From: a virus
Reading direction: 5' to 3' (one strand)
UHGV virus genome: UHGV-0105321
DNA length: 24,512 nt
Made by a program: the position numbers and the translations under genes. This document shows positions 13,080-22,281 of this stretch, in pieces. Within the stretch, counting starts at the first letter, position 1, and each line of letters begins with the position of its first letter. Below the pieces are notes generated by a model. That model saw only the letters and a list, made by a program, of their open reading frames with translations. It had not been told where the DNA came from and ran no database searches.

Positions 13080-13388
13080 TTAAACGAAGCGGATCTGGAG
13101 TTTTTTCCCTGTAGCACGGGCGAATTTTTTCAGTGTGGCAAATGATGGGCCGCTTGTACCTGATGCAAGATTGCTTTCCATTCTGGTTATCGCAGTCGCT
13201 TTTGTTCCCATACGTTCAGCAACTTCAGCCTGGGTTAAGCCAGCTTCTTTTCGTGCTGCCAGCATTTCATCAAGTAGTGCGAATTCATCGGCGATGGCGT
13301 CGTATTCTGCTTTTACTGCGGGGTTAGACAACATTTTTTCTACCATTTCATCGTGTGTCATGGTAGGTGGGGTACGTTTACCAGTCAT
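13080..13388 (-). CDS. HTH (XRE-like) antitoxin of a HigA/Gp48 type, 102 aa
   Basis: HTH-like LTQAEVAERMGTKATAITRMESN; overlaps the upstream toxin ORF by 11 nt; toxin-then-antitoxin order. Confidence 0.72.
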   Translation of the reverse strand: MTGKRTPPTMTHDEMVEKMLSNPAVKAEYDAIADEFALLDEMLAARKEAGLTQAEVAERMGTKATAITRMESNLASGTSGPSFATLKKFARATGKKLQIRFV

Positions 13389-13707
13389 GCTTAACCTCCT
13401 TCATTCTGGTTTCAGCTTTTCTAAGCTCGGCAGGTGGAGTTTTTTGCGTTTTCTTTACAAAGCTATGCAACATAATGATTCGCTTTCCTTTTAGCGTGCA
13501 GTAAAAAACACGCCCTATGCCTTCCGAGCCCTTAAGGCGGATTTCAAACAAACCGTCGCCAAATGCCTCTGTATGCGGGGAACCAAGATTAGCTCCGTAA
13601 ATACGCATTTTCTCCGTGTACCGAATGTACCGGGCTTGTAAGGTCTCAGGAAGAGAAAGGATCTCAGCTTCAACCTCGTCACTGTAGTATTCGATAATGT
13701 AGTTCAT
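13378..13707 (-). CDS. RelE/HigB-like (Gp49-like) toxin, about 109 aa from ATG 13707
   Basis: Size and sequence character (…FGDGLFEIRLKGSEGIGRVFYCTLKGKRIIMLHSFVKKTQKTPP…) typical of HigB/Gp49-family toxins paired with a downstream HTH; palindrome AACAAATTTGTT in the promoter region. Start codon uncertain (13707 or 13719). Confidence 0.68.
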   Translation of the reverse strand: MNYIIEYYSDEVEAEILSLPETLQARYIRYTEKMRIYGANLGSPHTEAFGDGLFEIRLKGSEGIGRVFYCTLKGKRIIMLHSFVKKTQKTPPAELRKAETRMKEVKHDW

Positions 13708-13839
13708 GAGAGTAAACATAACAAATTTGTTATATACATTCAAGGTATGTTGACGACAACACATATCCGGGATTATATTCTTCGCACGCCAGCAAAATCT
13801 GGCGTCGGGATTAGCACCCCGGATATCGAAACGGTGCAT

Positions 13840-13861
13840 AACCGCGCTGGCGGTTTTTTTA
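13840..13861 (+). terminator. Intrinsic terminator (stem AACCGC/GCGGTT, loop GCTG, then T7); tR2-like
   Basis: Short GC hairpin directly followed by TTTTTTT on the plus strand, upstream of the nin region. Confidence 0.5.
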
Positions 13862-14024
13862 TGCGCTAAGCACAGTCACATTCGCGATTTATGGCGGGCT
13901 GTGTGGGGGAGCCGAAAGGCTCGCCGGATGTTTCGACCGGTAGTGCTAACCCCGCACAGTTCGCCACCACGATGATTAGCACCTGAAGGTGGTGAGGTAA
14001 AAATTATCGAAACGCGAGGTCGTT

Positions 14025-14699
14025 ATGACTGTTCAAATCTCTGTCAAAAACCTTTCCCCTGTTACCTATAACCAGATTCCGGTAATCACAACTGAGTTGC
14101 TTGCCCGCCTTTATGGAACAGAAACAATCCGTATACAGCAGAATCACCATGAAAATAAATCTCGGTTTATTGAGGGAAAGCACTTCTTTAAAGCTGTTGG
14201 TGATGAACTCAGAAATTTGCGACTAGTTTTAAACGAGTCGCAAAATGAGGTGAAAATCTCTCCCAAAACCCGCTCGCTCATCCTCTGGACAGAACGAGGC
14301 GCAGCCCGCCACGCAAAAATGCTAGAAACCGATCAGGCGTGGGAAGTGTTCGAAAAACTGGAAGACTGCTATTTCAGCCAGGGAAAAACAGCACCAACCG
14401 AACAGCAGCCGCAGATTCAGCCACAATTCACAGCCGAAGAAATCATCCTCCTTTGCTACATGCAACTCTGGATGGAAAAAGCCCAGGACCTTAGCAAGCA
14501 GCTGTACCCCATAATGAAAGAGCTGAACTCCTCATACACGAACAAGCTGTATGACATTGCGTTTGAGACCATCTACATGGTGACGAAGAACAGAGACGCG
14601 CTACTAAGGGAGGTAACACGTCTCGACATGTCAAGTTCCGTTATCCAGCGGGCCATGCCAATGCTGAAAAGCCTGCGGGCAAGACAATTTGAATTCTGA
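14025..14699 (+). CDS. Hypothetical nin-region protein, 224 aa, possibly antirepressor-like
   Basis: Well-formed ORF followed by a terminator; the N-terminal region weakly resembles phage regulatory/antirepressor N-terminal domains by eye. Confidence 0.45.
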   Translation: MTVQISVKNLSPVTYNQIPVITTELLARLYGTETIRIQQNHHENKSRFIEGKHFFKAVGDELRNLRLVLNESQNEVKISPKTRSLILWTERGAARHAKMLETDQAWEVFEKLEDCYFSQGKTAPTEQQPQIQPQFTAEEIILLCYMQLWMEKAQDLSKQLYPIMKELNSSYTNKLYDIAFETIYMVTKNRDALLREVTRLDMSSSVIQRAMPMLKSLRARQFEF

Positions 14700-16222: not shown

Positions 16223-16457
16223 TATTCAGCAGGTGCCTGAACGCATGGCTTTATTCAGGTCGTCTGGAAAAGCGCATGAGCAGCGTAATAGCGGAGTTCA
16301 TGGCGAAGAGTATATGAACAGATTATTCGAATGCTATATGAGACTGAAGCACGGAGATCGCTATGACCTGACATGTGATGCTGACGGTTTCTACTGCCGT
16401 GAAGTTGTGAAACGAATGTTTGAAGTGTGGTGTCATTGTAAAGGATGGGGGCTGTGA
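16215..16457 (+). CDS. Small Cys/His-rich protein, 80 aa; N-terminus MRDIQQVPER resembles the start of Q82/QuuD-type antiterminators
   Basis: ATG 16215 with purine-rich upstream; only the first 10 residues recall Q-family proteins; stop overlaps the next start (TGATG). Confidence 0.4.
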   Translation: MRDIQQVPERMALFRSSGKAHEQRNSGVHGEEYMNRLFECYMRLKHGDRYDLTCDADGFYCREVVKRMFEVWCHCKGWGL

Positions 16458-17071
16458 TGCGGCTAACCCCAGTATTCGGCATGGTTAACTTTATTAATGA
16501 TGCTCATTTCCGCCGCATATGGAGGCATCCGAAGAAAATCATTAACTCTCGTCAGAAAGCATGGGTTCACTACATGCTACAGGTATGGGGAAATGTTAAC
16601 GCTGGTGATGATTCTCCTTGTGGTGCAATTAACGTTATTGGGCGACTGATGATTCGCAGTCAGTGGAGCGATGACAAAGCTAAGCAGATTGAGTCTGTTG
16701 TCATGCGTCTGTATGAAGAAGACGGACTACGTGGAGATGAACTCCATCAGAAAGCCCGAGAACTGGTCATCCCTCAGTCATCGGCAGGTAATATCATTGC
16801 TCTCGCCAAAGAATCCGATGATGCTGCTTTCGTTGAACGTGTGATGGTTGAGACCTTTCATCGTGAAAGCCCTGTCCGTGATGTAGCTATTAGGCGATAT
16901 TGCAATCGCGACAGCACGCAAGATATCGCCAGGATGATTTCTCAGATAACAGGAGTTGATATTCAGTATTGCCGGAGGCGGGTCGTGTGGTGCGAGAGGG
17001 TCCTTGATTCAGAAATGTTTTATGCAATGAAGCGAGAATTGGAGAAAGAACTTCTAGTGATTGCTGGATGA
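16457..17071 (+). CDS. Hypothetical protein, about 204 aa, in the Q position (last gene before the late-promoter region)
   Basis: Translationally coupled to the preceding small ORF; followed by a terminator and promoter-like units. No recognisable lambda-Q zinc motif; function inferred from position only. Confidence 0.45.
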   Translation: MRLTPVFGMVNFINDAHFRRIWRHPKKIINSRQKAWVHYMLQVWGNVNAGDDSPCGAINVIGRLMIRSQWSDDKAKQIESVVMRLYEEDGLRGDELHQKARELVIPQSSAGNIIALAKESDDAAFVERVMVETFHRESPVRDVAIRRYCNRDSTQDIARMISQITGVDIQYCRRRVVWCERVLDSEMFYAMKRELEKELLVIAG

Positions 17072-17231
17072 TGCAAAATATTTTTTGTAAATGCGTTGCT
17101 TTCGAGAAATGAAAGTAGTATGTTTTGTGTATGCTCGGAGCAAAAGCGCACTGAGAAGCGAAAGAGAAATCCTGATTTACCTCGGTCGTCGATAATATTT
17201 AGGATCGGCATACTGGCTAGATTAGGTAAAG

Positions 17232-17260
17232 GCCTCGGCAGAAATGTCGGGGCTTTTTGT
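17232..17260 (+). terminator. Intrinsic terminator (8-bp stem with two G-U pairs, loop AGAAAT, then TTTTTGTTTG)
   Basis: Hairpin 17232..17253 directly followed by a T-run. Confidence 0.5.
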
Positions 17261-17581
17261 TTGCACAACAGGTAAGAGCATTGAACCCGCAGACCTCGTG
17301 GAATTGGTGAAAGGTGTGCGCAGTGCTCTTATCGTTGTGGTGAAGCTCAATGGCGAGCTAGCAGACAGGCGACTGTGAAAATACTAGTCATGTAGCGGAT
17401 CGCCGCGCGTATTGTAATCGGCAGCGCACCGATGGGAGCTGGTTCGATTCCGGCCGCCACAATCCAAACTGAGCCGTAGCCTCTGGGTGTCCTGAATTCA
17501 TCAGTGATAGTTACGCTGCGGCCTTCTACATACGATTTTTGTGAAAAGCGGGTGGCAAGAGGCTGCGAAATTTTTAAATAC

Positions 17582-17804
17582 CTCACAATTCCACAGCTTG
17601 ATGATTGTCTGGCTGCCGGAGAATTTGTTAAAAATTGCATCGCGTGGTGAATCCCCCTCAGCGGCGGGGCATCTGGCAAAGTGTATGATCCAGCGAACAT
17701 GCAAATTCAGTAGCCAGGCTGAATTTACCGGGAGGCACCTGGCACCATGCGACAGACAGAAATTAGGCTATACTTCAGCCCCTCTCCGGAGGGGCTTTTC
17801 TGTG
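17582..17804 (+). repeat. Late-promoter-like unit A: -35 TTGTCT (17605..17610), -10 TAAAAA (17629..17634), conserved hairpin, terminator hairpin 17777..17796 plus T-run
   Basis: Shares block-wise similarity with unit B (18051..18286), including the terminator AGCCCCTCTCCGGAGGGGCU and the motif CACCGGGAGGCACCYGGCACCATGC. Confidence 0.6.
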
Positions 17805-17990
17805 CAGGATGTGTCACAGTTTCCTGAATTCTGAGTACTGTCCTGTTACTCAGGGTGCTATATTTTCTGACGTGATGAAAGTCTGCCGGAAGGCGGAACG
17901 TATCGGAAATGACCCAGTAGAGAAAACGTTGACTCAGATACCGATGCTGAGTTACCGGGAAACCGGCATCACATGACCGCTATCCTTCCA

Positions 17991-18013
17991 GGCTCGCTCC
18001 GGCGGGCCTTTTT
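17991..18013 (+). terminator. Intrinsic terminator (GGCTCGC-TCCG-GCGGGCC followed by TTTTT)
   Basis: 7-bp stem with one G-U pair and a T5 run, between the two repeat units. Confidence 0.45.
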
Positions 18014-18050
18014 ACTGCAGAAAACAGTTTTCCCGTAAAATGCCACGTTA

Positions 18051-18286
18051 CTCACAATTCAGGCTGGCGATTATTGTCTGGCCAGCGGGAAGTTTGTTAA
18101 AAAAATATGGCATGGTGAATCCCCTGTGCGGAGGGGCATATCAGCGACAGGTGTTTGGTCACACCCCTTATCCTTTCTGGTGCGGGTTCAGGTGCTGATA
18201 CTGAACTCACCGGGAGGCACCCGGCACCATGCATGAACGGTACATAGCGCTACTCTCCAGCCCCTCTCCGGAGGGGCTTTCTTGTT
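18051..18286 (+). repeat. Late-promoter-like unit B: -35 TTGTCT (18074..18079), -10 TAAAAA (18098..18103), hairpin, terminator 18259..18286
   Basis: Tandem paralogue of unit A; identical terminator stem; compensatory substitutions in the internal hairpin (CCCCT...AGGGG versus CCCC...GGGG). Confidence 0.6.
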
Positions 18287-18290
18287 GGAT

Positions 18291-18319
18291 AAAAAAAAGC
18301 CCGCGCCGGGAAGCGCGGG
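18291..18319 (-). terminator. Minus-strand intrinsic terminator (stem CCCGCGC/GCGCGGG followed by U8), back-to-back with the unit B terminator
   Basis: A8 run then GC hairpin on the plus strand, which is hairpin plus U8 on the minus strand. Confidence 0.55.
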
Positions 18320-18520
18320 TGGCAAGGAATAAACAACAAAACGTGAAGTGATCAATTTTCAGCTGGCGAATAATACCCGACAGTAATCACTCTGCGCAAC
18401 TGTATGGTCTTTTTCGTATTGCGGGCTGTAGTCATCCTCCTGTTTCTGAACCCTTGTCCATGACTGACGTCAGCCCGCACCTTATCTTGATTGCATACAC
18501 TATCCCTGCCGGGAGGAATA

Positions 18521-18829
18521 ATGGCATTTAAACACTATGACGTGGTCAGGGCATCATCGCCGTCAGACCTCGCAGGAAAACTGACGCAAAAACTGAAGGA
18601 AGGCTGGCAACCCTATGGTAGTCCGATTATCTCAAACGCGGGTTATGGTGCTGAATTTATCCAGGCTATTATGGTTCCGGTGGACGAACGGATGCGAAGA
18701 GCTGGACAACATCCGATCGTAAAACCCACTTTGGTTCATGGGCGCGTCGCGGAATTATTTCCGACCGTCTGGCAACAGCCATTCTTCTGCATGTGGGCAG
18801 AGTGGCAGATTTTGTTTCCGGGAAAGTGA
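18521..18829 (+). CDS. DUF1737-like N-terminal domain ORF (MAFKHYDVV...), about 102 aa as written; probably part of a larger frame-disrupted gene
   Basis: GGGAGGA ribosome-binding site before ATG 18521; N-terminal sequence resembles the DUF1737 domain that I recall at the N-terminus of prophage NanS-p esterases; the ORF runs into an overlapping frame. Confidence 0.5.
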   Translation: MAFKHYDVVRASSPSDLAGKLTQKLKEGWQPYGSPIISNAGYGAEFIQAIMVPVDERMRRAGQHPIVKPTLVHGRVAELFPTVWQQPFFCMWAEWQILFPGK

Positions 18830-19587
18830 CAAAAGCCGCGGTTTCTTCAGGCGGAGGCGTATCGCAACCAGCACAGGAGAGTGGCGATACTCAGCCTGAA
18901 TCCGTTGTCCCGACAAAGATACAGTCAGTGCTGGCTTATGATGCGAATGCGGAAAATGCCGATCTGGCTTCGCAGGGCTGGACGCTGACAGATGTCAAAA
19001 ACACGCTGGTCAGTGACAGTGGTTCAGGTAAAAAAGCCCTTCGTCTTGAAAAACCAGAAAATGGTCTTGCACAGAAAAAGACCTGGAAAGTATCGCACGC
19101 AATTGATGCCGGTAAGGGGAAGGAGCTGTTCGATAACGGCGGTGAAATCACGCTGCGCTTTAAAATCCCCGATGATGTATCTCTCAATGCTTCTGCAAAT
19201 CAATATTCTGCGGGTATTTACTGGCGCGGTAGTGGATGGCCGGGAGCGGAATCAGAGGAGGGTTATATTGCGGCCTTCTATCTGCAGACTGATAAAACAA
19301 ACATCAATGTGATGTATCATGCAAACACCACATCACAGCGGCTTGGTAGTTATGGTCCGTTCGATCACGACTGGCACACGCTGACTTTCCGCTTCCCGGG
19401 TGGTGGCTCGCTGAACGTCACGCCGGTGCTTGATAATGCAGCAGGAAAACCGTTTACGCTGACCAGATGGACGAATGCAGCCTTTGAGGCCAACGCGCTG
19501 GCAATTACGGATATTACCGGAAATGCGGCAACTTACCCTGTGCTGATTGAAAGTCTTACTGTTGGTGTGAATGCCGTAGCAGCATAA
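18793..19587 (+). CDS. Beta-rich putative carbohydrate-binding-like domain ORF, 264 aa, with no in-frame ATG until far downstream; likely continuation of the DUF1737 gene after a frameshift
   Basis: Long ORF with protein-like composition (Gly/Thr/Asn-rich); track start is a GTG; overlaps the upstream frame over 18793..18829. Confidence 0.5.
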   Translation: MGRVADFVSGKVTKAAVSSGGGVSQPAQESGDTQPESVVPTKIQSVLAYDANAENADLASQGWTLTDVKNTLVSDSGSGKKALRLEKPENGLAQKKTWKVSHAIDAGKGKELFDNGGEITLRFKIPDDVSLNASANQYSAGIYWRGSGWPGAESEEGYIAAFYLQTDKTNINVMYHANTTSQRLGSYGPFDHDWHTLTFRFPGGGSLNVTPVLDNAAGKPFTLTRWTNAAFEANALAITDITGNAATYPVLIESLTVGVNAVAA

Positions 19588-19727
19588 CAGACGAAAAAAA
19601 CCGCCAGCAACAGGAATGGAGACTGGCGGAGGTAATCCCAATGGAGAATCTAACGAAAGGATGCTTTCGACATCAATCATTTCTAAATGAAAACAGTTCT
19701 CATTGTCAACAGTAACGGTAATAAACC

Positions 19728-19922
19728 ATGACATTCATCAACCAGTTAATGCTGTACTTCTGTACGGTGGTCTGTGTGTTGTATCTGCTTTCGGGTGGAT
19801 ACAGGGCAGTACGCGACTTCTGGCGCAGACAGATTGACAAAAGGGCCGCTGAGAAAATCAGCGCCACTCAGTCAGCCGGAGCAAAAACAGAAGCCCCACT
19901 CATTCCGGAACAACCTTCTTAA
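19728..19922 (+). CDS. Small membrane protein, 64 aa (one transmembrane helix then a basic segment)
   Basis: Hydrophobic stretch LMLYFCTVVCVLYLLSGGY; weak ribosome-binding site. Confidence 0.4.
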   Translation: MTFINQLMLYFCTVVCVLYLLSGGYRAVRDFWRRQIDKRAAEKISATQSAGAKTEAPLIPEQPS

Positions 19923-19947
19923 TAACCCCTTTCAACGAGAAAATCTC

Positions 19948-20238
19948 ATGACAGATATAAAACAACTGGTCACTGCTGAGGCAGTGAAGGAAGTCATTCG
20001 CTCTGAAGAAGTCAGAAGCGTCCTGAAACAAAAACTCCGCCAGAATCTGGAAGAGCGTCTTGATGCAGAAGTGGATTCAATTCTGGATGAATTGCTTGGT
20101 GCACAGCCGGAACCATCCCCGGAACTGCTTCCGGAACCACAGGCGGAAGATGTCACCACGGAAAATGGTGATATTCAGCCGGAGTCACCGGTGACGGATA
20201 TGACAGACACACAACCCGAACCGGGCACAATGCTGTAA
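19948..20238 (+). CDS. Acidic hypothetical protein, about 96 aa from ATG 19948
   Basis: ORF ends just before a strong terminator at 20250..20281; weak ribosome-binding site; Glu/Pro-rich C-terminus. Confidence 0.4.
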   Translation: MTDIKQLVTAEAVKEVIRSEEVRSVLKQKLRQNLEERLDAEVDSILDELLGAQPEPSPELLPEPQAEDVTTENGDIQPESPVTDMTDTQPEPGTML

Positions 20239-20249
20239 CGGCGGGGCAG

Positions 20250-20281
20250 GGCCATCAGTAAAACACTGATGGCCTTTTTTA
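20250..20281 (+). terminator. Strong intrinsic terminator (9-bp stem GGCCATCAG/CTGATGGCC, 7-nt loop, then T6)
   Basis: Perfect inverted repeat 20250..20258 / 20266..20274 followed by TTTTTT. Confidence 0.7.
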
Positions 20282-22281
20282 TTTCCGGTAGCACAGGTCT
20301 GTCGGGGCGGGGATATGTATCAGATGGAAAAAATATCAACGGGCATATCCAGGTGGCAACCTCATTCCGTTCAGGTACGGTGCAGCGCCTGCATATCTCA
20401 GAGCACGGCAAAATTTGCGCAAAATATCCGGCTAAGGCGAAAGAACTGCGAACCGGTACACTTAATGCCGTCTCTGATGAGTGCATTATTTTTGATGAAT
20501 CCACTGCTGAAGGTGTGGGTGGCGATTTTTACGAGATGAGTACCGTTGATGGTGTTCTGGGTATGGAGGCCAAAACGCGGACTGATCTGTTGGTGATATC
20601 AGATGATCCTGATGATGAAACAGAAAAACTGGCTGAAGCTATTAATGCTGAATTTGCCGATGCTTGCCGCCTTGGAAATATGAATAAAGCCCGTTCTGAT
20701 GCCTATGCGGAACAAATCAAAGCGGGGCTCAGCTGGGTGGAGGTCAGACGGAACAGCGATCCGTTCGGGCCTGAGTTTAAGGTGTCTACTGTCAGCCGGA
20801 ATGAAGTGTTCTGGGACTGGCTCAGCCGGGAGGCTGATTTAAGTGACTGCCGCTGGCTGATGCGCCGCCGCTGGATGGATACCGATGAGGCAAAAGCCAC
20901 ATTTCCGGGAATGGCTCAGGTTATCGATTATGCCATTGATGACTGGCGTGGTTTTGTCGATACCACGGTTACTGAAGGCCAGCCCAGTCCGTTGATGAGT
21001 GCATGGGAAGAGTATCAGTCATGGGATCGACAGCAGAACGAATGGCTTCAGCGTGAACGCCGTCGTGTGCTGCTTCAGGTGGTTTATTACCGTACATTCG
21101 AGCGTCTTCCGGTGATTGAACTCAGTAATGGACGGGTGGTGGCCTTTGATAAAAATAATCTGATGCATGCGGTGGCTGTGGCATCCGGGCGGGTGCAGGT
21201 GAGAGTCGGGCGGGTAAGTCGTATTCGTGAAGCCTGGTTTGTGGGACCGCACTTTATTGTGGATCGCCCCTGCAGTGCGCCGCAGGGGATGTTCCCGCTG
21301 GTTCCCTTCTGGGGATACCGGAAGGATAAAACCGGGGAGCCTTACGGGCTGATTTCCCGGGCCATTCCGGCACAGGATGAGGTGAATTTTCGTCGTATAA
21401 AACTGACGTGGTTGCTTCAGGCCAAACGCGTGATTATGGACGAGGATGCCACCCAGTTGTCAGACAACGATCTGATGGAGCAGATCGAGCGTCCGGATGG
21501 CATTATTAAACTGAATCCGGCCCGAAAAAATCAGAAAAGCGTTGCTGATGTTTTCCGGGTTGAACAGGATTTTCAGGTTGCCAGCCAGCAGTTTCAGGTC
21601 ATGCAGGAGTCGGAAAAACTTATCCAGGACACGATGGGGGTTTATTCCGCATTTCTCGGGCAGGATTCAAATGCATCGTCCGGCGTGGCGATCAGCAACC
21701 TGGTGGAGCAGGGAGCCACAACCCTTGCCGAAATCAACGATAACTACCAGTTTGCCTGCCAGCAGGTGGGAAGGCTGTTGCTCGCTTATCTTCTTGATGA
21801 CCTGAAAAAGCGGCGTAATCATGCGGTGGTGATTAATCGCGATGATCGTCAGCGTCGCCAGACCATTGTCCTCAATGCTGAAGGTGATAATGGTGAACTG
21901 ACCAATGATATTTCAAGGTTAAATACACATATTGCGCTGGCTCCTGTTCAGCAGACACCGGCGTTTAAGGCACAGCTTGCACAGAGAATGTCAGAGGTTA
22001 TTCAGGGGCTGCCGCCTCAGGTGCAGGCTGTTGTGCTCGATCTGTGGGTTAATCTTCTGGATGTGCCGCAGAAACAGGAATTTGTCGAACGTATTCGTGC
22101 GGCGCTGGGGACGCCAAAATCACCGGATGAGATGACTCCGGAAGAGCAGGAAGCGGCAGCACAACAGCAGGCGCTGGAGCAACAGCAGGCAGAACTTCAG
22201 ATGCGCGAAATGACAGGCCGGGTGCGTGAGGCATTTCGCCGTCGTGTTGCGGAGACTGAACAGCATGGCGGAACTGACTGA
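20269..22281 (+). CDS. Large late-region structural protein, up to 670 aa, with portal-like character (tentative); true start unresolved
   Basis: Uninterrupted frame ending in a Gln/Ala/Glu-rich helical tail (…EEQEAAAQQQALEQQQAELQ…) as seen in portal proteins; the annotated 5' end overlaps the terminator hairpin and no in-frame start has a good ribosome-binding site. Confidence 0.5.
   Translation: MAFFISGSTGLSGRGYVSDGKNINGHIQVATSFRSGTVQRLHISEHGKICAKYPAKAKELRTGTLNAVSDECIIFDESTAEGVGGDFYEMSTVDGVLGMEAKTRTDLLVISDDPDDETEKLAEAINAEFADACRLGNMNKARSDAYAEQIKAGLSWVEVRRNSDPFGPEFKVSTVSRNEVFWDWLSREADLSDCRWLMRRRWMDTDEAKATFPGMAQVIDYAIDDWRGFVDTTVTEGQPSPLMSAWEEYQSWDRQQNEWLQRERRRVLLQVVYYRTFERLPVIELSNGRVVAFDKNNLMHAVAVASGRVQVRVGRVSRIREAWFVGPHFIVDRPCSAPQGMFPLVPFWGYRKDKTGEPYGLISRAIPAQDEVNFRRIKLTWLLQAKRVIMDEDATQLSDNDLMEQIERPDGIIKLNPARKNQKSVADVFRVEQDFQVASQQFQVMQESEKLIQDTMGVYSAFLGQDSNASSGVAISNLVEQGATTLAEINDNYQFACQQVGRLLLAYLLDDLKKRRNHAVVINRDDRQRRQTIVLNAEGDNGELTNDISRLNTHIALAPVQQTPAFKAQLAQRMSEVIQGLPPQVQAVVLDLWVNLLDVPQKQEFVERIRAALGTPKSPDEMTPEEQEAAAQQQALEQQQAELQMREMTGRVREAFRRRVAETEQHGGTD

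Follow-up and report, generated by a model that had tools for sequence, protein, structure and literature searches.

A putative array of three STnc100-family small-RNA genes with a pseudoknotted core, downstream of Q in a lambdoid prophage

What does the repetitive, terminator-rich stretch that follows the Q-like gene of the virus genome UHGV-0105321 encode? The DNA of 24,512 nucleotides (nt) that we analyzed, hereinafter the window, belongs to a lambdoid, Stx-phage-like Escherichia coli prophage, and across the segment in question it is 99.7% identical to phage PhiR5_2. A first-pass annotation had seen here, at 17.6–18.3 kb, a tandem duplication of a late-promoter-like unit, and had offered two readings of it: two copies of a pR′/qut/tR′-like cassette, or two small-RNA (sRNA) genes downstream of Q within a cluster of short transcription units. 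Our analysis favors an amended form of the latter: with a probability of about three in four, the segment comprises three paralogous, independently transcribed sRNA genes of the STnc100 family, whose synonyms and relatives are EcOnc27, sRNA103 and PasD1/2. The three units are arranged head-to-tail in the order A–C′–B with a period of ~235 bp, and the apparent tandem pair, A and B, which are ~470 bp apart, is a triple array. The array lies in the “moron” region, 3′ of the Q gene and its candidate pR′/tR′ and 5′ of the remaining late genes; in the window, the Q-like gene precedes it, and DUF1737/nanS-p-like and portal genes follow. It thereby occupies the place expected of the family, namely in a lambdoid prophage between Q/PR′ and the lysis/late genes.

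The assignment is carried by units A and B. Both are full-length matches to the Rfam model RF02076 (STnc100) at about three times its curated gathering score of 47 bits, which makes them members of the family by the Rfam rule. Unit A additionally scores 59.5 bits against a covariance model of our own (R1) and has a fold z of −3.1, and a permissive-threshold Rfam search of the units retrieved no other family (no riboswitch, ribozyme, AsxR or AgvB). The parts of the two units are the following:

17605–17800, plus strand: unit A, predicted STnc100-family RNA gene; RF02076 138.7 bits over 17612–17805, E ~1e-31
17605–17634, plus strand: predicted promoter of unit A; −35 TTGTCT at 17605–17610, 18-nt spacer ending in TTTGT, −10 TAAAAA at 17629–17634
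17642–17649/17743–17750, plus strand: helix P1 of unit A
17653–17669, plus strand: GC hairpin P2 of unit A
17669–17671/17700–17702, plus strand: base of P3 of unit A
17703–17711/17718–17726, plus strand: P4 of unit A
17728–17742, plus strand: P5 of unit A
17673–17677 with 17713–17717, plus strand: pseudoknot of unit A, S1 CUGGC with the P4 loop GCCAG
17727–17750 (A) and 18209–18232 (B), plus strand: shared motif ACCGGGAGGCACCTGGCACCATGC
17751–17776, plus strand: linker of unit A
17777–17796, then TTTT, to 17800, plus strand: terminator of unit A, AGCCCCTCTCCGGAGGGGCT
18074–18283, plus strand: unit B, predicted STnc100-family RNA gene; RF02076 129.8 bits over 18081–18289, E ~1e-28
18074–18103, plus strand: predicted promoter of unit B; TTGTCT at 18074–18079, TAAAAA at 18098–18103, predicted transcription start (+1) ~18110
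18110–18117/18225–18232, plus strand: P1 of unit B
18121–18136, plus strand: GC hairpin P2 of unit B
18136–18138/18181–18183, plus strand: base of P3 of unit B
18184–18191/18201–18208, plus strand: P4 of unit B
18210–18224, plus strand: P5 of unit B
18139–18146 with 18193–18200, plus strand: pseudoknot of unit B, S1 UAUCAGCG with the P4 loop UGCUGAUA
18259–18278, plus strand: terminator of unit B, the same 20 nt as in A; the unit ends at 18283

The promoter of unit A has an extended −10 element, TGtTAAAAA, with the TG at 17626–17627, and a predicted +1 at ~17642. Aligned with each other, A and B are 78% identical over 268 columns, and every part that had been named at first reading could be located in both, a common architecture far beyond chance. 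The similarity begins at CTCACAATTC (17583 and 18052) and is not limited to the terminator hairpin. The terminators are identical, as had been said, and the internal hairpin, P4, indeed varies while staying paired: its arms read AAAUUCAGU/GCUGAAUUU in A and GGGUUCAG/CUGAACUC in B, with two compensatory changes and one that is one-sided. The shared motif is likewise present in both units, save that its leading C is a T in unit A. The count of two units, however, has to be revised, as a divergent third unit, C′, lies between A and B:

17856–18014, plus strand: unit C′, divergent middle unit; Rfam STnc100 30.0 bits, E 2.7e-4 (17841–18016), below 47
17856–17864, plus strand: predicted promoter of unit C′, extended −10 TGcTATATT; predicted +1 ~17871
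17872–17877/17967–17972: P1 of unit C′, GUGAUG/CAUCAC
17883–17896: P2 of unit C′, CUGCC-GGAA-GGCGG
17901–17906 with 17941–17946: pseudoknot of unit C′, S1 UAUCGG with the P4 loop CCGAUG
17930–17937/17947–17954: P4 of unit C′
17955–17966: P5 of unit C′, CCGG-GAAA-CCGG
17990–18014, plus strand: terminator of unit C′ (hairpin 17990–18009)

Against R1, unit C′ scores 20.5 bits (E 1.3e-3) over the whole model length (17870–17974). It is found in 15 related loci, each time flanked by STnc100 units, and a 90%-identical variant retains P2 via a compensatory change of U–A to C–G; the differences between the variants cluster in P2, with the pairing kept. At 30.0 bits, unit C′ is by the Rfam criterion a relative of the family and not a member, as is the element in the kilR leader described below, at 28.3 bits. 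The full A–C′–B array is covered to at least 80% in 584 of 5426 complete E. coli genomes. The wider segment is rich in terminators too: between 16900 and 18600 there are 11 terminator-like sites, where shuffled sequence would be expected to yield 1.8, and within 1.1 kb the plus strand bears five terminators (tR′ and four from the scan), in addition to one that is convergent. The further terminators that had been placed at 17232 and 17991 correspond to the candidate tR′ (17228–17258) and to that of unit C′ (17990–18009); the one at 18291 also exists, but on the minus strand (18300–18319).

To see what unites these units, we drew on ~170 related loci, of which 120 were fetched from IMG/VR by the 3′ motif and 53 came from contigs sampled at one genome per species. 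The clustering of open reading frames (ORFs) around the units was noisy, with overlapping spurious ORFs, and was used only for the Q, lysis and moron context. Each unit consists of an extended −10 sigma-70 promoter, a core, a variable single-stranded linker of 17–26 nt and an intrinsic terminator. The part conserved across genera is the transcribed, structured core of ~100–125 nt that starts at +1; the promoter region is not conserved in distant genera. A sigma-70 match of at least 8/12 precedes 116 of the 144 distinct units, versus 27 of 144 for shuffled upstream sequence, and the −10 element of these units ends 9–11 nt before GGUGAA; other genera have a near-consensus TTGACn-17/18-TAnnnT at the same distance, followed by 6 nt and then G. 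Given this fixed promoter distance, the RNA should start at the base of P1. The terminators are the least conserved part: they start ~25 nt past the core in 72 of 81 E. coli-type units, and ~40% of the copies from other genera have none within the ~110 nt examined, several leading straight into an ORF. Multiple copies are frequent: two are present in 17 of 121 IMG/VR/phage loci and four in one further locus, and arrays of two to four copies occur in Superficieibacter and Leclercia. Among the arrays in E. coli prophages, one locus (L005) has four copies in 1.1 kb and another (L051) two copies 269 bp apart; in two loci of Superficieibacter and Leclercia (L129 and L165), three to four core units stand directly 5′ of endolysin/spanin genes.

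The core is closed by helix P1 and contains the hairpin P2, which is near-invariant, the variable arm P3, and the hairpins P4 and P5, the latter invariant. When its nested helices were evaluated on 40 sequences of <92% identity with the variable arm excised, 91.2% of the cells were paired, compared with 78.3% in shuffled sequences (0 of 500 reaching the observed value) and 43–47% with slid partners. One pair of P1 is GC in 18 and AU in 17 of these sequences, and in eight of the nine P4 pairs both partners have changed; the same set shows scarcely any sequence variation in P2 and P5. RNAalifold independently recovered P1, P2, P4 and P5 along with the base pair of P3 (AU 18/GC 15). The nucleotides of the junctions and loops, GGUGAAU, CUnnGCG, GCG, CACC and GGAGGCACC, are near-invariant. 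Furthermore, the 5–10 nt after P2, on the strand of the P3 arm, pair with the loop of P4 to form a pseudoknot, which is present in all three units of the window (CUGGC/GCCAG in A, UAUCGG/CCGAUG in C′ and UAUCAGCG/UGCUGAUA in B). The longest helix averages 6.1 bp with the own partner versus 4.4 bp between different RNAs, and the mean duplex energy, with 44 different strand sequences, is −8.7 versus −4.8 kcal/mol for mismatched partners, a difference reached by 0 of 5000 permutations. This test of own against other partners was used instead of a column-based count on the MAFFT alignment, which is blurred by register shifts of 1–2 nt (58.8% paired). R1, a mini-core model with the insert excised, breaks unit B in two and gives low scores to members with long inserts; it was not used for the family-wide alignment. 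The Rfam STnc100 consensus, for its part, lacks a pseudoknot, and its model positions 1 to ~28 are promoter DNA.

The family itself has been described before. Strain EDL933 has 11 STnc100 copies, one of them Northern-verified (PMC5331693), and the copy just 3′ of stx2B is the Hfq-binding sRNA EcOnc27/sRNA103 (PMC12711010, PMC7873438). PasD1/2 of the enteropathogenic E. coli strain E2348/69, reported structural homologues of STnc100 that are linked to Q and holin/lysozyme genes, are Hfq-dependent, Northern-verified and abundant in RIL-seq (PMC8550237, bioRxiv 10.64898/2026.05.13.724894); the preprint on the Pas RNAs gives its own copies as not tandem (bioRxiv 10.64898/2026.05.13.724894). RpoD is bound at the Salmonella STnc100 copies. 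Tree et al. 2014 (PMC4104026) recorded such genes together with short convergent anti-sRNAs 3′ of PR′ in eight Sakai prophages (Sp5 and seven others), and a later review, which locates them after the late promoter and before the lysis genes, terms the reason for this “unclear” (PMC7873438). Prior publications cover the family as such, the location of its genes and their pairing with convergent sRNAs. Units A and B agree with STnc100/EcOnc27/sRNA103 in their full-length matches and in their position between PR′ and the lysis genes; in Stx2 phages, the EcOnc27 gene closely follows stx2B and has a convergent small RNA as its partner, whereas the window has three tandem copies, one of them sub-threshold, and no stx. 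PasD1 and PasD2, which we compared by description and not by sequence, are likewise prophage sRNAs linked to Q and holin/lysozyme genes, but the copies in the window are adjacent. There may also be a parallel to the anti-sRNA dyads, in which AsxR and AgvB accompany EcOnc27 and EcOnc06 (PMC4104026, PMC7873438), as a convergent candidate abuts unit B:

18291–18350, minus strand: candidate convergent small-RNA gene, ~58 nt; terminator 18300–18319 plus U8, 8-bp stem

Two related loci (L086 and L036) contain segments homologous to this candidate, and in a third (L045) its place is taken by AgvB; unlike the partners in the published dyads, the candidate was not matched by the Rfam AgvB and AsxR models (RF02702, RF02703). 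Adjoining paralogous sRNA genes that have a common scaffold and divergent variable parts are familiar from OmrA/B, PrrF1/2 and Qrr. The STnc100 units, by contrast, have in common a large pseudoknotted fold and not a seed or terminator; they also differ from tandem riboswitches, each unit having a promoter of its own. In the literature that we found, there is no description of a tandem triple array, the sub-threshold middle paralogue, the pseudoknot of the core, the Enterobacteriaceae-wide spread with fixed promoter geometry, or the homologues in the kilR/dicB leaders, an absence that does not prove novelty.

We propose that in the lysogen each unit would give rise to a discrete RNA, of ~159 nt for A, ~144 nt for C′ and ~174 nt for B, and that these RNAs would associate with Hfq and pair with mRNAs in trans via their variable parts; in the lytic phase, polymerase that starts at pR′ and is modified by Q would read through all the terminators. 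It is for the relatives alone that constitutive expression in lysogens, discrete RNAs of ~150–210 nt, Hfq dependence, Hfq cross-linking and many RNA partners are on record. Several observations weigh against this proposal. Transcription of the units at this locus is a prediction from sequence; the −35 and −10 hexamers of A and B each match the consensus at 4/6 positions, and they went uncalled in a generic sigma-70 consensus scan. The runs of U are either short or broken by other bases (UUUUCUG, UUUCUUGUU), which may weaken both termination and Hfq binding. Scores under the Rfam threshold were obtained for unit C′ and the kil-type element. It is the folded core that is conserved, not a single-stranded seed, which is unusual for base-pairing sRNAs; finally, since the same core serves elsewhere as an mRNA leader (of kilR, dicB, a MarR-type gene and an outer-membrane protein gene), its selected function may be cis-acting or structural and Hfq binding incidental. 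Inside the units, the generic scan called minus-strand sites only, TTAACA-16-GACAAT, twice; as promoters we set these aside, since they are the conserved TGTTAA region read in reverse.

The leader elements just mentioned include one in the window itself, in a region far from any Q gene:

4070–4199, minus strand: STnc100-core homologue in the 5′ leader of kilR; partial R1 match over 4079–4122, E 1.9e-3; fold z −2.7
3816–4037, minus strand: kilR (ATG at 4037), phrog_294
4219–4268, minus strand: DicF-like RNA 5′ of the kilR-leader element; Rfam DicF 29.5 bits, below the threshold of 48

The element, with its Rfam STnc100 score of 28.3 bits (below 47), ends ~32 nt 5′ of the kilR start codon and lacks both a promoter and a terminator of its own. 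It has a P1 of GAUGCGGUG (4199–4191) and CACCGCAUC (4078–4070), the GGUGAAU junction, the CUnnGCG loop motif, P4, a P5 of CCUGG-AGGUA-CCAGG, and a pseudoknot of 7 bp in which the S1 strand CAGUUAA pairs with the P4 loop UUAACUG. Among 36 distinct variants of the sequence 5′ of kilR, 32 have kept it (73 of 79 IMG/VR loci) and display compensatory changes in P4 and a hypervariable arm, and elements of this type are present, unannotated, in 4559 of 5426 (84%) complete E. coli genomes. In K-12 W3110 (loci L259, 2522–2633, and L260, 19174–19284), the core is found both 5′ of kilR in Rac and between dicF and dicB in Qin, neither being annotated in RefSeq; the dicF–dicB copy scores 34.4 bits against STnc100, below 47. 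These K-12 leaders share the core architecture and the conserved junction motifs with the STnc100 units but differ in lacking their own promoter and terminator, in proceeding straight to the Shine–Dalgarno (SD) sequence and AUG, in their P2 stem and in their scores of 28–34 bits. In Kosakonia and Enterobacter, the core forms the 5′ leader of a gene for a MarR-family regulator (L126 3137–3273, L161 1830–2017, L158 2459–2608), with the SD/AUG 31–45 nt after P1 and no terminator. It also precedes an outer-membrane protein gene in L160 and small membrane-protein ORFs in L163, L172 and L174.

Given that the same fold serves as both the body of an sRNA and the leader of an mRNA, our best guess is that the core would act as a nuclease-resistant or factor-binding 5′ domain, with 5′-end protection, a protein platform or a sensor as options. 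A wider proposal, which we put forward tentatively and regard as rather unlikely, is that the core (P1–P5 with GGUGAAU, CUnnGCG and GGAGGCACC) defines an unrecognized structured-RNA class of the Enterobacteriaceae, of which STnc100/PasD/EcOnc27 would be the stand-alone form; it might constitute a factor- or ligand-binding or self-processing module placed before kill or arrest genes (holin/endolysin, kilR, dicB), some regulators and membrane proteins.

Less likely still, in our estimate, is that the core is a cis-acting regulatory or sensor domain for a protein, small molecule or RNA ligand that gates downstream expression, with the stand-alone sRNAs being its terminated form. Its conservation resembles that of an aptamer, with near-invariant junctions and loops set among covarying or variable stems, a variable arm and a pseudoknot; a conserved domain with covarying stems and invariant junctions, as in a riboswitch, is what we found. 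The core is moreover followed either by a terminator ~25 nt on or, without a terminator, by an SD/AUG 31–45 nt on (kilR, dicB and the MarR-type genes), and tandem arrays stand before holin–endolysin genes. However, an expression platform competing with the sensing domain was not found: inspection of the terminators and SD regions across genera, which was not a formal test, disclosed no conserved alternative pairing of the core with either. The terminator stem of the E. coli units does resemble P2, which might have pointed to riboswitch-type switching, but the resemblance is absent in other genera and we rejected the idea. Furthermore, every unit comes with a promoter of its own, the genes that follow are a mixed group, contrary to what would be expected of a metabolite riboswitch, and the relatives give discrete terminated RNAs. 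A tRNA-like or RNase P substrate, an HK022 put-like element, a retron and known self-cleaving ribozymes were also considered and dropped, no matching features or Rfam matches being found (HK022 was not directly tested).

The array might alternatively be mainly a transcriptional insulator, whose terminators and occupying promoters shield the lethal late genes in the lysogen, with the RNAs as by-products. The density of terminators within 1.1 kb noted above would suit such a role, as would the arrays of two to four units directly before holin–endolysin–spanin genes in several genera. An insulator, however, has no need for a conserved, pseudoknotted RNA of ~110 nt, and it is precisely the terminators that are least conserved, with the above-mentioned ~40% of other-genus copies lacking one and several running straight into an ORF; we therefore hold this reading to be improbable.

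There remains the other reading offered at first, that the units are duplicated late-promoter cassettes (pR′, qut, tR′) and their RNAs abortive late leaders. The precedent is lambda pR′-6S-tR′, in which a constitutive promoter 3′ of Q gives a short terminated RNA. The units are comparable, each lying 3′ of Q and combining a promoter, an RNA of ~160 nt and a terminator. StxS, an Hfq-dependent sRNA that is itself a pR′ leader (PMC7873438), has the same organization of constitutive promoter and short terminated RNA 3′ of Q, and shows that such a leader can serve as an sRNA. Nevertheless, the window contains a separate candidate for this function immediately after the Q gene:

16445–17071, plus strand: Q-like late antiterminator gene, 208 aa; phrog_753 “anti-termination protein Q-like”, E 3.5e-68
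17106–17258, plus strand: candidate pR′, short leader and tR′; TTGCTT, 17 nt, TATGTT at 17106–17134
17228–17257, plus strand: candidate tR′ hairpin; the U-run is its 3′ arm, to ~17258; 13-bp GAAA-loop terminator, fold z −3.55

Judging from its sequence, its folding and the analogous units that follow each Q type, the candidate at 17106–17258 would be the true late pR′/tR′; the consensus scan did not list this site. The 208-aa protein has no Pfam match and no match to a solved Q structure in the PDB, and for this reason its Q type is not tied to a characterized qut site. The comparison with the late-promoter regions of related prophages speaks with one voice: in all inspected loci, Q is followed by its own promoter–leader–terminator and the RNA unit comes only after that, even in the closest cases. 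With the 273-aa Q type, this promoter–leader–terminator carries the lambda-like pause motif AACGATGGG. The RNA gene lies 378–3478 bp 3′ of Q genes from at least five unrelated families (160, 190, 231, 273 and 208 aa), often behind tRNA genes, a methylase, TerB, stx or other morons, and in other genera the order is Q, pR′/tR′, one to four RNA units and holin–endolysin–spanin. Thus, the STnc100 units do not lie directly 3′ of Q as the sole promoter–terminator before the late genes, and no co-variation with the Q family is seen in their promoter and early transcribed region; distant genera keep the transcribed core and not the promoter region, and the core is also found in the pL operon, far from any Q. 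In contrast to lambda 6S and StxS, the units have a pR′/tR′ upstream of them, are independent of the Q type and possess a conserved folded core. The cassette reading is accordingly very improbable. The alternative of sRNA genes in a cluster of short transcription units stands, with three genes rather than two.

Three ORFs overlap the RNA genes:

17541–17834, plus strand: 97-aa ORF overlapping unit A
17809–17976, plus strand: 55-aa ORF overlapping unit C′; phrog_23557
17347–17700, minus strand: ORF annotated in phage PhiR5_2

That the region codes for these small proteins is the least credible reading, for although all three are open, two are hypothetical proteins in the PhiR5_2 record (PV340546) and the 55-aa ORF matches phrog_23557, they overlap covariance-model RNA matches, lack any Pfam or PHROG function (phrog_23557 holds just this element), and the variant differences in the middle unit cluster in P2 with pairing preserved. 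They are probably annotation artifacts, and the 55-aa ORF is probably not a gene since the RNA gene of unit C′ occupies the same stretch.

Other features of the window concern the prophage at large. A tRNA-like relic lies between the candidate tR′ and unit A:

17336–17462, plus strand: tRNA-like relic, its anticodon region bearing a 74-nt insertion; 26.5 bits against the Rfam tRNA model, threshold 29

Its acceptor, D and T arms are intact, and related phages have two or three intact tRNA genes here; ARAGORN called no tRNA or tmRNA in the whole window. Between the array and the P22-type portal gene (20269–22281), the stretch 18491–20268 has only ORFs of DUF1737 and DUF6645 (nanS-p-like pieces) and DUF826. 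The holin, endolysin, spanin and terminase genes of PhiR5_2 are missing from it, and hence the late region of this prophage looks defective. Further upstream on the plus strand, 13773–13971 holds Rfam matches above threshold to c4-a1b1 (13773–13825), isrK (13786–13860) and the C4 antisense RNA (13887–13971), just 5′ of an ORF6N/P22AR-type antirepressor gene (14025–14699); the same pair is seen in locus L086. This is an antirepressor control module of the P1/P7 immI-like or Gifsy IsrK type in a lambdoid prophage. A Gp49/HigB-like toxin ORF on the minus strand (13378–13839), with an adjoining antitoxin (HigB/HigA in the PhiR5_2 annotation), is inserted together with its neighbors between the replication genes and this module.

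In sum, the units are best seen as unannotated members of a published sRNA family in its published location, and the hypothetical-protein annotation in public phage records can be corrected. These findings bear on the question of why lambdoid prophages retain such sRNA genes 3′ of PR′ and 5′ of the lysis genes (PMC7873438): what has been conserved is a pseudoknotted fold and not a seed, and this fold is Enterobacteriaceae-wide and often arrayed. The function of its homologues in the kilR/dicB leaders, including those of K-12, is open to direct genetics. If the tentative proposal of a wider structured-RNA class were true, the tandem arrays and the K-12 dicF–dicB and kilR leaders would be parts of one regulatory system.

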